Part shown: piece after piece, positions 9,701-14,756 of the stretch
Numbering within the stretch: position 1 is the first letter of the stretch
How the letters are laid out: each line of letters opens with the position of its first letter
Assembly: GCA_964493175.1 (NCBI GenBank)
Contig: CAZBMU010000001.1
Location: forward strand, 1-39,160
From: an uncultured Clostridium sp.
GTDB taxonomy: Bacteria > Bacillota > Clostridia > TANB77 > CAG-508
DNA: 39,160 bases
Direction of reading: 5' to 3'
The notes under the pieces: generated by a model
Database searches by the model: none
What the model saw: only the letters and a program-made list of their open reading frames with translations
Told to the model about the DNA's origin: nothing
Program-made: the position numbers and the translations under genes

Positions 9701-10123
9701 TTAATAGTTAAATCCAATAACTTTTGTTATTAAAACAACATCTGTTGATATATCAGAACCAACATCTCCGTTAGTCATATTGACTCTTTGATTATAATTA
9801 AATGTTATAGATGTTCCCGAAATTGATATTTCTGCCGTATACAAATATTGATAAGTTCCATTATAATGTGAAAATAATACAGAACTTTTTCCATTTGGAT
9901 TAAATATTTCTATTGTATTGTAAAAGCTATTTCTGATATTTTTATATTCTATTTTTATTCTTTGAAAATTTGCAACACTTTCGTTTAATGTTATAGTTCC
10001 AGTTGTCCCGCTTGAATTATCATATAATGTAGTTCCTTCTAATAAATCACTTAATTTTTTTCTTCCATGCACTATGCTTGTACTGTCTAAATATGTTTCA
10101 TTCTTAAATTTTACACTCTTCAT
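9701..10123 (-). CDS. Small structural-module protein, paralog B (candidate receptor-binding or fiber-tip module)
   Basis: 140 aa, similar along its whole length to the neighbour 10148..10591 (shared ..LEGT.LY.NS.G....ITL.ES..NF.. and C-terminal ITKVIG). Confidence 0.5.
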   Translation of the reverse strand: MKSVKFKNETYLDSTSIVHGRKKLSDLLEGTTLYDNSSGTTGTITLNESVANFQRIKIEYKNIRNSFYNTIEIFNPNGKSSVLFSHYNGTYQYLYTAEISISGTSITFNYNQRVNMTNGDVGSDISTDVVLITKVIGFNY

Positions 10124-10147
10124 CTCTTAATTAGCTTAAGATGATAA

Positions 10148-10591
10148 TTATTTATATCCTATTACTTTTGTTATATAAATCATTCCACCATTGTCAAAAA
10201 TAGCACTACCATTATTTGTAAAATATACCCTCCTATTGTTTTCCAAAGAGATATTTGTTTCTGAAATAATTCCCCTAGCAACAATAAAATAAAGATTGTT
10301 TACACCACTTATAGGTGCTAATAATGTTATTTGTTTATCGTTAGGATTATTTATTTTAAGGAAATTATAATTGTATATTGAACCTTGTTCTCCTGCAAAA
10401 TATATTTCTAAACAATCAAAGTTTTCTGCACTTTCACTTAATGTTATTGATGTACCACTTCCTGTGCTATTGTTATATAAAACTGTTCCTTCCAATGTTT
10501 CATAAACACTTTTATGTTTTCCATTTTTACTATGTATTACTGATTTGTCATCTATATAATTACCATCTTCTAATTTATAACTTTTAGCCAT
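10148..10591 (-). CDS. Small structural-module protein, paralog A
   Basis: 147 aa. There is no SD within 12 nt of its ATG; the nearest SD-like sequence is inside an upstream hairpin. Confidence 0.5.
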   Translation of the reverse strand: MAKSYKLEDGNYIDDKSVIHSKNGKHKSVYETLEGTVLYNNSTGSGTSITLSESAENFDCLEIYFAGEQGSIYNYNFLKINNPNDKQITLLAPISGVNNLYFIVARGIISETNISLENNRRVYFTNNGSAIFDNGGMIYITKVIGYK

Positions 10592-10603
10592 TTTATTTTT
10601 TTC

Positions 10604-10679
10604 GAGGAAGTTTAACTTACTCTACTTCCTCCTTTGCTCCAAATAAAAAGGAAGAAGTTATAAATAAGCTTCCTCCTTT
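10604..10679 (-). promoter_or_regulatory. Two hairpins, each built on an AAAGGAGGAAG repeat
   Basis: Hairpin 1: arms 10679-10669 and 10657-10647, 11 bp with one G-U, followed by UUAUUU (terminator-like). Hairpin 2: arms 10631-10624 and 10611-10604, 8 bp perfect; it sequesters the GGAGG 13 nt upstream of the ATG at 10591. Confidence 0.5.
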
Positions 10680-10753
10680 CTTTGTAAAATACTCGTGTGT
10701 GTGTGTGTGTGTGTGTGTGTTACAGCCCCAAGGCTTTTATTGATTTTTTTCAT
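10658..10753 (-). CDS. 31-codon ORF containing the dinucleotide repeat
   Basis: ATG at 10753 immediately follows the upstream stop, with GGAGG 8 nt upstream; translation MKKINKSLGAV(TH)4TSILQRKEEAYL. The C-terminus depends on repeat length. Confidence 0.35.
   Translation of the reverse strand: MKKINKSLGAVTHTHTHTHTSILQRKEEAYL
10695..10720. repeat. Perfect (GT)13 microsatellite
   Basis: 26 nt of uninterrupted GT read directly; it is (AC)13 in the sense of the minus-strand operon. Confidence 0.97.
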
Positions 10754-10954
10754 TTATGATTCCTCCCATTCTTCTACCTCTACAAATGATGGTAGATCCA
10801 TTTCGTTTAAGTCATCTACTAGTTTATTAAATTTTGTTTTTATTGTTTTATTTCCTTTGTCAAATTCTGCTTTTAACTCTGTTGACGTCATTGCTGGTGT
10901 GTCTGACAATAAGCTTATGTTTTCAACATTTTCTGTAATTTTCTCAAATTCCAT
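10754..10954 (-). CDS. Hypothetical acidic 66-aa structural-module protein
   Basis: ORF track; SD present. Confidence 0.5.
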   Translation of the reverse strand: MEFEKITENVENISLLSDTPAMTSTELKAEFDKGNKTIKTKFNKLVDDLNEMDLPSFVEVEEWEES

Positions 10955-10965
10955 ATTTTCCTCCT

Positions 10966-12864
10966 TTATAAATAATTTACTGATTTTACATATCCACCTA
11001 TAAAAGCTTCTAATGTAGCATTGAATATTCCAAATGGTTTGTCTAATTCATCTGAATAGAATGTCATTGATATTTGACTCCACTTCTTCTGTTTGATTTT
11101 ATATTTCATAAATGACTTACTAGATGTTGTAAATGCAAAATCAATAAACGAAAAATCATCAAAAGAAAAACCACTAGATATGTATCTAGTGACATAAGTT
11201 TCATCTATTTTATCCGTTTTTACTTTTAATTTGCAAATACTATTTTGAATTGTTTTCATACTAGCAATTCCGCCTCTTTTATTAGTTGTCTTCAAATGGT
11301 TTTCTGATGTAAAACTATCATCAGGTGTTTGCCATTGACTGTATATTAATCTTCCATTATCGTTGTATCTGTTATCGACAAACTTTGCTACTACTCCATT
11401 TATTGTTCCAAAGTATAAACTCTCATCATATTCTTTAAGTAATGTTGCTTTATAAAATGTACCTTCTACTACATCGCCTATATTATCCCAATAATACCAT
11501 TCGTATTCTTGCTGTTGAGTTCCTTTATTTAAGAATTGTTGTCTGTTGTCTGCTAAGTATATATGTCCATTTATTAAGCATAAAAGATAACCCCTCCATT
11601 GTTCTAAGTGAACATTTTCTAAATCGCTTTCATTTACAAGTTTACTGTCTACCATTGTTGATTTATGTTCTATACTTCTTTCATAACCTAAATTAAGTTT
11701 TGTAAAACTTTTTAGTCCTAACCTGCTCATAAATACTGGTTCATCTAAAAAGTTTTTACTTCCCCAGAATGATATACATCCTACTCCTGCTAATCCTTGT
11801 TTTGTTGGATATACTGTTTCAGTTTCGTCATTTGTAGTTATTTCTTTAGGGGTATGATAATAAACTACAGAGTCTTGTTGGTCATCTTTCTTAATTACAA
11901 GTATACTATCTCCTACTCTCATTAAAGACGTTATTGATACGTTATCGCTTCCATCTTGATAATATGCAGTATCTGAAATATATGTAGGGTCATTTAACAT
12001 ACTATGGAATAAAGCATTTGGAAAGTCTGAATTTCCACTATAAAACACTCTATTGTCAAATATACAACTTAATATACATTTGCTTATTCTTGTCGAATAT
12101 CCACTTACTGTCTTGGCAAACGTGATTACTACATTATCTTGTCCTGCTGTACTTGGTGCAGATGGTGCTGTGTTAAATGTTACTACTCCTGTTGTTCTAT
12201 TTACTGTAAAATCTGTTCCTTCTGTTTTATTTGTTCCATTTACTGTTGCTGTTACTGTAGTTGAATCTAATCCACTTGAATCTAATGTATAATTTCTATC
12301 TGTTCCGTTTCCTAAAAATGAGTTCTTACGTTTAGGCTGTAATACGTTTACAGGTTGATAAAGTGTTCCTCCACCTGATGGTGCTCTTGCAATTGTTGTC
12401 GTGGGTATAAAAGCATCACTTGACACAGGTTGAATTGTATTTCCATCATAATATAAATAATTTGTTCCGTCGTTTATATACATTTTATTATTATACACAA
12501 ACGATACTGATTTTTTTTGTGCCATTGTTGAGTATAACTCTGTCATGTTTGATTCTTCTTGTGCATTTGGATAATCACTCCACAATAAAAGTTTAGTTCC
12601 ACTATGTACTATTACTTTTAAAGAGTTCGTCTTGATAAAATGTATTCCAAATATTTCAGAGTTCAATTCCAATATATTTATAAACCCTGGTCTAGTTTCA
12701 ATTGCTTGTCCTAAACTAGACTTATAATCTTTATACATATTTACACAATTTGGACTTCTATTAAGCTGTACTTGAGAACTGTCAGATGTATAATCTACTC
12801 CTGCAAAATTGCTATACACTCTTGTTTTAGGTGTCTTAGGTGTAAAACTTGGTATGGTTGCCAT
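10966..12864 (-). CDS. Large structural protein (tail or adsorption apparatus candidate)
   Basis: ORF track, 632 aa, located between the head genes and the fiber-like genes. No family recognised by eye. Confidence 0.5.
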   Translation of the reverse strand: MATIPSFTPKTPKTRVYSNFAGVDYTSDSSQVQLNRSPNCVNMYKDYKSSLGQAIETRPGFINILELNSEIFGIHFIKTNSLKVIVHSGTKLLLWSDYPNAQEESNMTELYSTMAQKKSVSFVYNNKMYINDGTNYLYYDGNTIQPVSSDAFIPTTTIARAPSGGGTLYQPVNVLQPKRKNSFLGNGTDRNYTLDSSGLDSTTVTATVNGTNKTEGTDFTVNRTTGVVTFNTAPSAPSTAGQDNVVITFAKTVSGYSTRISKCILSCIFDNRVFYSGNSDFPNALFHSMLNDPTYISDTAYYQDGSDNVSITSLMRVGDSILVIKKDDQQDSVVYYHTPKEITTNDETETVYPTKQGLAGVGCISFWGSKNFLDEPVFMSRLGLKSFTKLNLGYERSIEHKSTMVDSKLVNESDLENVHLEQWRGYLLCLINGHIYLADNRQQFLNKGTQQQEYEWYYWDNIGDVVEGTFYKATLLKEYDESLYFGTINGVVAKFVDNRYNDNGRLIYSQWQTPDDSFTSENHLKTTNKRGGIASMKTIQNSICKLKVKTDKIDETYVTRYISSGFSFDDFSFIDFAFTTSSKSFMKYKIKQKKWSQISMTFYSDELDKPFGIFNATLEAFIGGYVKSVNYL

Positions 12865-12876
12865 GTTTCCTCCTTT

Positions 12877-13458
12877 CTACAAATTTCCTATCATTTGATT
12901 TATTGTTATTAATCCGTTATCTTCTTTTTTTACACTATTCATTAATATTTCTAATTTAGCATTATATTTTGCTTCAAAAGCTGTGTAATTAGCTGATACA
13001 TCACTTTTTAAAATATCACTTGCTACATAATAAGGTAAAACTTGTTGTGCTTCTAAATCTATTTCAAGTTCATAGCCGTCATCAGTTTCATTTGTTATCT
13101 CTTGAGGTTTTGCAAAATACTCAAATTCGAAATTTCCTAAACAGTCTTTATGTATTTTTAATTTGTTGTCTTGTATATAGTAATTTAGCAAACTACCATT
13201 ACTTGAATAATATCTCATTCTGTTTTCTTCCATATAATTTTCTGGAAGTGCTATAACGTTATACTCTGTTTCTGATTCCTCATCAATACTAAACTCATAA
13301 GTCTTTTTTATTTTTTTTATTAGTGAAAGTTCTATTTGTCCTAAATTACATAGACCGTTTAATTTTAACCTGATGTCTTCATCATCAGTTAAATTAGAAT
13401 TATTAGAATATTCATCTATTAACTTTACAGCTAATTCTTTTATTTGAGAAAGTGTCAT
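12877..13458 (-). CDS. Structural-module protein (head-tail connector candidate)
   Basis: ORF track, 193 aa; assignment from position only. Confidence 0.45.
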   Translation of the reverse strand: MTLSQIKELAVKLIDEYSNNSNLTDDEDIRLKLNGLCNLGQIELSLIKKIKKTYEFSIDEESETEYNVIALPENYMEENRMRYYSSNGSLLNYYIQDNKLKIHKDCLGNFEFEYFAKPQEITNETDDGYELEIDLEAQQVLPYYVASDILKSDVSANYTAFEAKYNAKLEILMNSVKKEDNGLITINQMIGNL

Positions 13459-13898: not shown

Positions 13899-14756
13899 TT
13901 ATGCAGATAATGAACCGCTTTCTTTTACTTTGAATAATACTAATTCTTTTGGTTTGATTATTTTAGCACCAAATACGTGTAAAGAACTATATAATCCTTC
14001 AAATGCATTTTCTGCTTCAGCTATGAATCTTGACTTAACAATTTGGTCAGCATAAACGATAGCATTGTAAGAACCTGCTAAGCAGTAATGAACTCCAGCT
14101 GTTACTTTTACATTGTTACTTACGAATGTTTTCATTCCTAAATAGTCAGCCCATTCAAGACCACCTTCAAATCCTTTCATACCTTCGTTAACTCCAAATT
14201 TTAAACCTGCATTTGTTGCATATTCTTGTACCATTGGGTCGATTACGAAGAATCTTTGTCCTGCAGGTACGTTAGCTTCGTTAAGCTTTCTTGCTACTCT
14301 TGAGAAATATTGAAGAGCATTATCTTCAGATATTTCATTTCCTGCACCTGTTGCATCTACTACTGTTGTAATAGAGTTATCAGAAGCTAATGCTAATACA
14401 TAAGCATCAGCATTATCTTTTAATTCGTATGCTGCTCTTTCAACTTGAGTTCCTTTAATATCTATAGCACTTTGAAATGCTTCTATATCATCAACTTTAA
14501 ATGCTACATATTTTCTTTGATTGATTACTAAAGTTACTCCTTCATCGTTTAATGATTCATATGTAATTGTTCCTTCATAATCTTTTACTGTTGGTTTATC
14601 AAGTCCTGTGAATGTTACTTGGTCACCATATTTTTTAATTTGTGAACCTGTATCCATTGTACAGATTCTTTTTGCTACTAAATTTTTTTCTAATTCTTTT
14701 ATTACCTTTGCACTTACTAGTTTAGGTATTGATACTGTTATTGCATTATTTGCCAT
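13899..14756 (-). CDS. Major capsid protein
   Basis: 285 aa, directly after an acidic scaffold-like gene; codon usage and composition typical of a highly expressed gene; strong SD. Confidence 0.7.
   Translation of the reverse strand: MANNAITVSIPKLVSAKVIKELEKNLVAKRICTMDTGSQIKKYGDQVTFTGLDKPTVKDYEGTITYESLNDEGVTLVINQRKYVAFKVDDIEAFQSAIDIKGTQVERAAYELKDNADAYVLALASDNSITTVVDATGAGNEISEDNALQYFSRVARKLNEANVPAGQRFFVIDPMVQEYATNAGLKFGVNEGMKGFEGGLEWADYLGMKTFVSNNVKVTAGVHYCLAGSYNAIVYADQIVKSRFIAEAENAFEGLYSSLHVFGAKIIKPKELVLFKVKESGSLSA

Follow-up and report, generated by a model that had tools for sequence, protein, structure and literature searches.

A microsatellite-bearing leader upstream of fibre-tip genes without a Shine-Dalgarno sequence: a candidate phase switch in uncultured gut and rumen phages

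What is a perfect dinucleotide repeat of 26 nt doing among the fibre genes of a phage? In this work we have used comparative sequence analysis to approach this question for a prophage carried in a 39,160-nt stretch of DNA from an uncultured Clostridium sp. (contig CAZBMU010000001.1, positions 1 to 39,160; this whole stretch is referred to as the window). The repeat, (GT)13, lies between the gene for a small fibre anchor and two tandem genes for fibre tips that have no Shine-Dalgarno (SD) sequence, and since these genes are on the minus strand their mRNA carries it as (AC)13. The explanation that we favour, and hold to be rather likely, is that (AC)13 is the hypermutable core of a contingency-leader cassette that is translationally coupled to the SD-less fibre-tip genes; such a cassette would probably be a phage-encoded on/off switch for host recognition. 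The elements of the locus, from the anchor to the second tip, are the following.

10754-10954, minus strand: 66-aa open reading frame (ORF) for the fibre anchor; residues 1-53 match the N-terminus of phrog_14469, a tail fibre protein.
10761-10767, minus strand: SD of the leader ORF, GGGAGGA (GGAGG at 10766-10762, 8 nt before the ATG).
10658-10753, minus strand: leader mini-ORF of 31 codons plus TAA (ATG 10753-10751, TAA 10660-10658).
10721-10735, minus strand: conserved sequence on the 5' side of the repeat; a small hairpin of -4.8 kcal/mol (AGCC-UUGG-GGCU), then GUA.
10695-10720: perfect (GT)13, 26 nt, read as (AC)13 in the mRNA.
10641-10679, minus strand: hairpin 1 with its U-rich tail, arms AAAGGAGGAAG (10679-10669) and CTTCTTCCTTT (10657-10647).
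10604-10631, minus strand: hairpin 2, arms GAGGAAGU (10631-10624) and ACUUCCUC (10611-10604), 8 bp, -10.8 kcal/mol.
10592-10603, minus strand: A-rich spacer without SD, directly 5' of the tip-1 AUG.
10148-10591, minus strand: fibre tip gene 1, 147 aa, with an N-terminal MAKSYKLxDGNYID followed by a beta-sandwich distal domain.
10124-10147, minus strand: SD-less spacer between the tips, 24 nt, TTATCATCTTAAGCTA..., conserved in unrelated phages.
9701-10123, minus strand: fibre tip gene 2, 140 aa, a paralog of tip 1, without SD.

The original prediction for this DNA had called the tract highly non-random, and our counts bear this out: the longest other non-homopolymer dinucleotide run in the 39-kb window is 10 nt, the longest run in 300 first-order Markov simulations never exceeded 14 nt, and the chance expectation for (GT)13 or (AC)13 tracts is 8e-12. 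An assembly artefact, which that prediction had kept in view, is excluded because five of five independent ENA metagenome assemblies that span the tract agree on the same 26 nt. The tract is predicted to be unstructured and holds no stop codon in any frame. It lies, as had been described, inside a 31-codon ORF with its own GGAGG, upstream of two SD-less paralogs. The leader ATG stands immediately 3' of the TAA (10756-10754) that ends the 66-aa ORF, whose last codons (EEWEES*) contain the leader's SD, and the leader peptide reads MKKINKSLGAV(TH)4T-SILQRKEEAYL. The two tips share 36% identity (E 4e-22), and both their genes are without SD, while most of the about 50 ORFs on the minus strand have one of the GGAGG type.

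Between the repeat and tip 1 we could locate both of the predicted hairpins, including the terminator-like one with its 11 bp and U-rich tail. The 11 bp of hairpin 1 include one G-U and close an 11-nt loop; the tail is UUAUUU, and the hairpin folded alone has -15.2 kcal/mol. The leader stop of the present phase, TAA 10660-10658, forms the final three bases of its loop. The loop of hairpin 2 contains both alternative leader stops, TAA 10619-10617 and TAA 10614-10612, and 12 nt separate the end of this hairpin from the tip-1 AUG at 10591. The SD-like sequence that had been described as single and buried in hairpin 2 does form its 5' arm, and it is not single: AAAGGAGGAAG is present twice, at 10679-10669 and at 10635-10625, each copy being the 5' arm of one hairpin.

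Is this arrangement peculiar to the window phage? Relatives carrying the same elements were recovered by exact-pattern scans and by a leader protein search, for which the +1-frame version of the leader was used, the 31-aa leader as found being too short, and their DNA was then compared (contigs and lineages are given as L numbers). Homologous leader ORFs occur in 33 protein clusters, and compared at the DNA level the roughly 160-nt spacer is a conserved cassette, shared by 10 or more lineages of uncultured Firmicute-type phages of gut and rumen. Nearly always it lies between a fibre shaft or anchor gene, which in the relatives ends in ..EF(E/Q)(I/V)V(D/E)(S/T)W* or ..EEWEE(S)*, and a tandem set of one to three small tip genes; in siphovirus-like loci, holin and endolysin genes come next. 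The order within the cassette is a strong SD and ATG, about 10 variable codons, GCCTTGRGGCTGTA, the repeat, hairpin 1, hairpin 2 and an SD-less start, and a strong SD followed by an ATG stands at the leader position in every cassette examined. The tip genes of the relatives are without SD beside neighbours that bear GGAGG, and many of them start with TTG. The relatives carry CGTGAT 4-5 nt before the tip start, which could pair weakly with the 16S 3' end, where the window has its A-rich tract instead.

The same hairpin sequences, nearly identical in their core, join differing anchors or shafts to differing tips in L017, L023, L024, L033, L025, L026, L029, L034, L035, L036, L038 and L042. L024 and L033 have the cassette and the tip in common and differ in their anchors, whereas the window and L017 share their anchor type with L024 and differ from it in their tips. 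L017, which is 96% identical to the window, keeps the same split layout and an identical hairpin region, with (AC)8 and a 43-aa mini-ORF in another frame. At the equivalent position, the repeat is (AC)n of 12-29 nt, (AG)15 in L029/L030 (30 nt) or (TACA)20 in L042 (80 nt); the unit length is never a multiple of 3, and all three motifs are stop-free in every frame. The GCCTTGRGGCTGTA DNA is kept and is translated as SLGAV, KPWGC or ALRLY depending on the lineage, and compensatory stem changes in L036 alter the leader peptide. Since the reading frame of this flanking DNA changes from lineage to lineage, the constraint, to judge from these sequences, is on the nucleic acid and not on the leader peptide.

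At the RNA level, RNAalifold gave a two-hairpin consensus, which is also the predicted minimum-energy fold of most members. L036 keeps its pairing through five double changes, two compensatory pairs in hairpin 1 and three in hairpin 2, as counted on hand-aligned arms; RNAalifold run on the MAFFT alignment, in which the divergent L036 hairpins were misaligned, counted no compensatory pairs. In the window, the four arm segments can pair alternatively as 1:4 and 2:3, and this is its predicted minimum-energy fold. The same fold pairs UAUUUUA after the repeat (10685-10691) with UAAAAUG (10589-10595), the tip-1 start codon included; this pairing is kept in L017 with one-sided changes only and, being weak and AU-rich, may be due to chance.

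What does the number of repeat units change? The leader of each lineage was translated as found and with one repeat unit added or removed, and in 9 lineages this always gave one overlapping phase and two phases that stop short. In L024/L033, L025, L026, L029, L034, L035, L036 and L038 exactly one phase is open through both hairpins, and its stop overlaps the tip start by 4 or 8 nt (ATGA, TTGA, TTGGCTGA, TTGGCTAA or ATGGCTGA). With one unit fewer, translation of the leader in these lineages stops 60-75 nt before the start, at a TAA in the hairpin 1 loop, and with one unit more it stops 19-27 nt before it, in the hairpin 2 loop. The stop-start distances of the three phases are -8, 18 and 59 nt in L042, which has the tetranucleotide, and -4, 22 and 30 nt in the L040 group, which has a single hairpin, and an overlap (-4 or -8 nt) is found in L024, L025, L026, L029, L034, L035, L036, L038, L040 and L042. 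The open phase runs for 40-60 codons in DNA of 28% G+C and ends exactly on the downstream start. In E. coli, the activity of an SD-less cistron coupled by reinitiation falls with the stop-start distance and is at background at 40 nt (PMC2268962), and because reinitiation falls with distance in this way, a reading of the three phases as ON, weak and OFF fits. In the window, the leader stop of the present phase lies 66 nt before the AUG at 10591, and the simulated removal or addition of one unit moves it to the TAAs 25 and 20 nt before this AUG, that is, into the loop of the second hairpin, where the original prediction had placed it.

Does the number of units vary? Comparison of related prophages revealed different repeat lengths in close relatives, in keeping with the variable tract that had been proposed: 26 nt in the window against 16 nt in L017 (96% identity), with 20 and 22 nt in L023 and L033, and 24, 28 and 21 nt in the near-identical L040, L043 and L041. 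L040 (24 nt, ON phase) and L043 (28 nt, OFF phase) otherwise differ over about 540 nt by one substitution and 1 nt of a poly-A run. In the clusters P0013, P0018 and P0028, the N-terminus is the same and the post-repeat DNA is read in all three frames. With the lengths counted at homologous positions, (AC)6-14.5, (AG)15 and (TACA)20, the cassette has the marks of a contingency locus, a perfect non-triplet repeat whose number differs between near-identical genomes. Within the window phage there are at most hints of such variation: contig L011 has at least 13.5 units, and four contigs (L003, L008, L011 and L012) terminate within the tract. In the Logan contig L006 (1-172), the repeat is the point at which about 140 nt of unrelated, non-coding-looking DNA meet the phage sequence; the junction has exactly 30 nt in common with the phage, CTGTA(AC)12A, and the last repeat unit reads AT, not AC. 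The assembler behind this contig presumably used k = 31, which makes the 30 nt shared equal to k-1, and the junction is likely a k = 31 chimera.

What stands on the two sides of the repeat? The 66-aa ORF matches phrog_14469 over its first 53 residues only. In six IMG/VR relatives, whose 632-aa protein is 74-89% identical to that of the window, one gene of 171-176 aa occupies the anchor/tip position. In L014, L016 and L020, the N-terminus of this single gene corresponds to the 66-aa ORF of the window (E 3e-18; residues 2-60 of the 171-aa gene) and its C-terminus to residues 33-147 of the 147-aa tip 1 (E 2e-11), while L013 has the anchor N-terminus in common and a different C-terminal domain. 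Because relatives fuse the anchor N-terminus and the tip C-terminus in one gene, the fibre of the window phage is, on this comparison, split into an anchor and two separate distal tips, with the repeat exactly at the split. Other fibre proteins, one of them with Phage_fiber_rpt, end in the same C-terminal domain as tip 1, which has a length of about 115 aa. The AlphaFold2 model of tip 1 is a beta-sandwich (predicted local distance difference test score, pLDDT, 86.5), and its best Foldseek matches are the phi812 baseplate chain 9euf_8 (E 6.8e-6) and also the C-terminal domains of phage K gp144 (5m9f, E 3e-4).

Tips with unrelated C-terminal domains share an N-terminal peptide of 20-30 aa, M[AS]KS[YV]K[LF]K..NY[IL]DS.S[IV].H, seen in the window tips and in those of L017, L025, L026, L029, L034, L035 and L038, and the upstream shaft/anchor proteins share the C-terminal motif ..EF(E/Q)(I/V)V(D/E)(S/T)W or ..EEWEES; together they look like a docking pair for a split fibre. 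The SD-less spacers between tips are of two kinds across unrelated phages, TAAATCACAGCTCTTGAAAAA..ATG and TAATTATCATCTTAAGCTATA..ATG (window 10124-10147; L025 3564-3586 and 3956-3982; equivalents in L026, L029, L035 and L038). That of the window is of the second kind. These conserved spacers may serve for reinitiation or for module exchange.

We propose that ribosomes would enter at the strong leader SD, the region offering them no other good entry site, and would then cross the repeat, the number of units setting the phase in which the two SD/anti-SD-like hairpins are read. In the ON state of most relatives, the leader would be open through both hairpins and its stop would overlap the SD-less, often TTG, tip start, so that the terminating ribosome could reinitiate there. 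In the weak state, the stop would lie in the loop of hairpin 2, 19-30 nt short, and in the OFF state in the loop of hairpin 1, 59-75 nt short, with hairpin 2 remaining closed. Hairpin 2 would mask the tip-1 start, and upstream translation would open it. Slippage of the polymerase by one unit, which is 2 nt long in the dinucleotide forms and 4 nt in the tetranucleotide form, would switch a lineage between these states, and phage progeny would vary in whether, or how much, tips are carried. For the window, 13 units give the far-stop phase, predicted to be OFF or low, and with 12 or 14 units the leader would open hairpin 2, a predicted partial ON. Tip 2 would probably be gated together with tip 1 across the 24-nt SD-less spacer. 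What the sequences show is the anatomy and its conservation in many lineages, the differing repeat lengths of relatives and the link of phase to stop position; how often slippage occurs in a phage population, a dependence of tip translation on the leader and any effect on host range are inferred from them. A wider reading, plausible and put forward more tentatively, is that of a horizontally shared plug-in cassette, made of an SD, a leader ORF, a non-triplet microsatellite, one or two hairpins and a leader stop overlapping the next start, which would gate an array of SD-less exchangeable tips as a stochastic, heritable and reversible ON/weak/OFF switch for bet-hedging of host range.

Several findings weigh against such a switch. 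The window/L017 lineage is without any phase in which stop and start overlap, so that in the window copy the two do not have the adjacency that coupling calls for; the loop of its hairpin 2 is shorter and contains stops, and it is without CGTGAT, with an A-rich tract before the start that might permit independent initiation. In the window copy the switch may be weakened or vestigial, a derived form. The idea that the repeat sets the leader phase and thereby controls the SD-less genes is strongly supported by the comparative anatomy of the relatives, with their overlapping-stop phase and their differing repeat lengths, but not fully: the copy for which it was conceived lacks that phase, and the terminator reading of hairpin 1 is not conserved. 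The covariation rests on one divergent lineage, L036, and on hand-aligned arms fitted to the structure. L046 (reverse strand, about 8030-8300) has the 5' module, with SD, ATG, ..CCTTGGGGCTGTA and (AC)11, and no hairpins, and the downstream gene has its own SD, AGGAGGTGA; therefore the repeat module exists outside the coupling arrangement too. All five assemblies that span the tract of the window phage have 26 nt. L048 and L033, 99.5% identical, have the same 22-nt repeat, and their phase differs by a 2-nt indel beside it. Finally, the set of members recovered by their leader peptide has a bias for long ORFs in the ON phase, and among those found through their DNA (n = 8), which are free of this bias, two of the eight (L024 and L040) are in the ON phase, about as neutrality predicts.

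Could the cassette do without a switch? It may be a linker at a module boundary, where anchors and tips are swapped by homologous recombination, the microsatellite being a neutral passenger whose phase is of no regulatory consequence. Such a linker would account for anchors that differ where the tip is the same (L024 vs L033) and for tips that differ behind one anchor type (window/L017 vs L024), the conservation across phages of the SD-less spacers between tip paralogs points the same way, and so do the roughly random frequency with which the DNA-found members occupy all three phases and the missing overlap in the window lineage. However, a linker explains neither the strong SD and ATG in every cassette, nor an open frame of 40-60 codons that ends on the downstream start in DNA of 28% G+C, nor the occurrence of three repeat motifs that are all non-triplet, nor the compensatory changes in both hairpins. 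We regard this explanation as rather unlikely, and the roles of linker and of switch are not mutually exclusive.

In a second alternative, transcription attenuation, hairpin 1 and its U-tract would be an intrinsic terminator, and the position of the ribosome, set by the phase, would decide on transcription into the tips. The terminator reading was part of the original prediction, and the window itself is suggestive: the 11 bp of hairpin 1 (-15.2 kcal/mol) lead into UUUUUAUUU, made up of the three U that end the 3' arm and of the UUAUUU tail, and the arms have the alternative 1:4 and 2:3 pairing as their predicted minimum-energy fold. The relatives do not sustain it, since there is no U-tract in L026, L029 and L035, no hairpin 1 in the L040 group, and the arms of L036 no longer support the alternative pairing. 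Furthermore, essential genes follow in the same orientation (the 276-, 85- and 1614-aa virion genes here, holin and lysin in relatives), and a terminator scan made no call at hairpin 1, owing to its 11-nt loop. Attenuation is in our view quite improbable.

We are more doubtful still of a non-heritable slippage of RNA polymerase or ribosome that would yield a fixed mixture of leader phases in each infection. The unstructured tract, stop-free in all frames, would allow it, and a fixed mixture would explain why consensus genomes in the OFF phase are common, but heritable differences in DNA length are seen directly between near-identical genomes, and the documented cases of programmed transcriptional slippage concern, to our knowledge, long A or T runs and not dinucleotide repeats. 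The least credible explanations, by which the repeat would act as a DNA structure (Z-DNA, which (GT)n is able to adopt, or a recombination hotspot, at which one might place the foreign DNA joined to the tract in L006), as a (Thr-His)n micro-protein or as an assembly artefact, and which the original prediction had offered as other roles or as a caveat, meet with (AG)n and (TACA)n in place of (AC)n at the same position, with a peptide frame that differs between lineages, the same flanking DNA being read in different frames and an (Arg-Glu)n version existing, and with the agreement of five independent assemblies, L006 being a likely chimera.

Other candidates were tried and rejected. Read-through or fusion from anchor through leader to tip finds one shared frame in the window, but three stops lie between, and the frame relation is not conserved in relatives, the distance from the anchor stop to the leader ATG being 0 nt in the window and 16 nt in L025. 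A programmed ribosome bypass of the T4 gene 60 type fails at its take-off codon UCA, for which no matching landing site lies in frame ahead of the tip ORF, and at the same lack of a conserved frame relation. A promoter inside the cassette was considered for the conserved TTTACA after the repeat, which is without a properly spaced -10, and the scan lists none there.

Several observations in the relatives concern the surroundings of the cassette. In the L040 group, the place of the cassette is between the holin and endolysin genes instead of behind a fibre gene. The post-cassette ORF of this group has, about 95 nt from its start, a poly-A run, A7 in L040 and A8 in L041, L043 and L044; the A7 cuts the 109-aa downstream ORF of L040 to 41 aa, in the sole genome of the group with an ON-phase leader. 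In L038 (1891-2262) and L039, which come from different samples, the first tip gene is frameshifted, with GATCGGAAAACC where relatives read D-G-K-P; it is possible that this first tip is a pseudogene in an otherwise ON-phase cassette. In L031 (1-2234) and L032 (1-1899), a group II intron (an ORF with RVT_1 and GIIM; Rfam D1-D4) starts directly after the (AG)7 of one leader-like mini-ORF, and a second copy starts about 65 nt past an (AC)14.5 cassette. In L032, domain V-VI of another intron is nested in the reverse-transcriptase ORF, which looks like a twintron. In L031/L032 the leader SD and ATG lie within about 20 nt 3' of intron domain V. Might the sequence 5' of the repeat derive from a group II intron? 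Rfam placed intron domains there, and the 3' splice site was not located.

The window phage itself is integrated as a prophage in a genome of low G+C content (about 29%). Its structural genes are on the minus strand, in transcription order from the major head protein to a 1614-aa gene, and its other landmarks are the following.

35593-35669: tRNA-Met, with a host aminotransferase gene beyond it.
34384-35511: tyrosine integrase, the sole recombinase identified in the window.
13899-14756, minus strand: major head protein.
12877-13458, minus strand: SU10 adaptor-like protein.
10966-12864, minus strand: 632-aa virion protein.
1592-2557: endolysin.

Downstream of tip 2 and in the same orientation there are genes of 276, 85 and 1614 aa, the product of the last having a MuF_C domain. 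The gene for this MuF_C virion protein (3698-8542) has no recognisable SD either, and its start lies 19 nt past the stop of the 85-aa gene.

Is a cassette of this kind known? No Rfam 15 family matches it (best match E 0.48, far below any gathering score). Against 50,697 GenBank phage records, blastn of the 5 kb around the locus and of the cassette gave nothing relevant, and no cultured phage with the cassette was found there; tblastn of the tip protein gave one weak match in these records. Two exact-pattern scans of species-representative genomes gave no match, and in the literature we found no description of a microsatellite-bearing leader cassette in phages. Simple sequence repeat (SSR) contingency loci with repeats in the 5' coding region are known from bacteria, such as the CAAT repeats of Haemophilus influenzae lic1A and the CT/AG repeats in outer-membrane protein genes of Helicobacter pylori. 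As in those loci, slippage in a perfect non-triplet repeat would shift the phase and give ON, intermediate and OFF states. Unlike them, the cassette has its repeat in a separate upstream leader ORF, with a proposed stop-start coupling through two hairpins, and is phage-borne and horizontally shared. Phages also switch tropism by the G-segment and C-segment invertases of Mu and P1 and by the diversity-generating retroelement of Bordetella phage BPP-1. The likely outcome would be similar here, a heritable and reversible variation of the distal fibre or receptor-binding module, but near the window locus there is no gene for an invertase or a reverse transcriptase, and the tip genes are in direct orientation.

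Contingency loci have been met in phages too. Poly-G tracts are said to occur in receptor-binding genes of Campylobacter phages, and homopolymer tracts have been described in genes of T2/T4, in a paper whose text does not mention dinucleotide repeats or translational coupling (PMC12633550). A hypermutable phage-borne tract could diversify progeny for host interaction in these phages and in ours, although theirs are homopolymers inside the affected ORF and the cassette has a di- or tetranucleotide in a dedicated leader. Coupling by termination and reinitiation onto an SD-less cistron is the case of gene V and gene VII of phage f1/M13, and the cassette is like it in the SD-less downstream gene and in the stop that overlaps or abuts the start (in the cassette relatives), and would share its steep dependence on distance (PMC2268962). 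This classical geometry is fixed, whereas the cassette repeat would select among three geometries. In the 5' untranslated region of H. influenzae hmw1A, an SSR acts through an RNA hairpin processed by RNase III (PMC12721329); similarly, the cassette has a transcribed repeat upstream of an adhesin-type gene, with a post-transcriptional action that would involve an RNA hairpin. In contrast, the heptamer repeat of hmw1A forms an arm of the hairpin and expression scales with the repeat number (PMC12721329), while the repeat of the cassette is unstructured and translated and is proposed to act via its reading phase.

What would this mean for the biology of these phages? If our proposal is true, translational coupling would here pass on phase variation, a regulatory logic that would be new and that needs neither an invertase nor a reverse transcriptase; the reports of phage contingency loci are recent and deal with homopolymers inside genes. 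The cassette would offer a simple three-state stochastic switch for engineered phages, and it would flag loci at which metagenome assemblies break or misreport the expression state. It would also explain why some fibre genes are split into an anchor and tips, and would constitute a compact new mechanism of host-range bet-hedging in uncultured gut and rumen phages.

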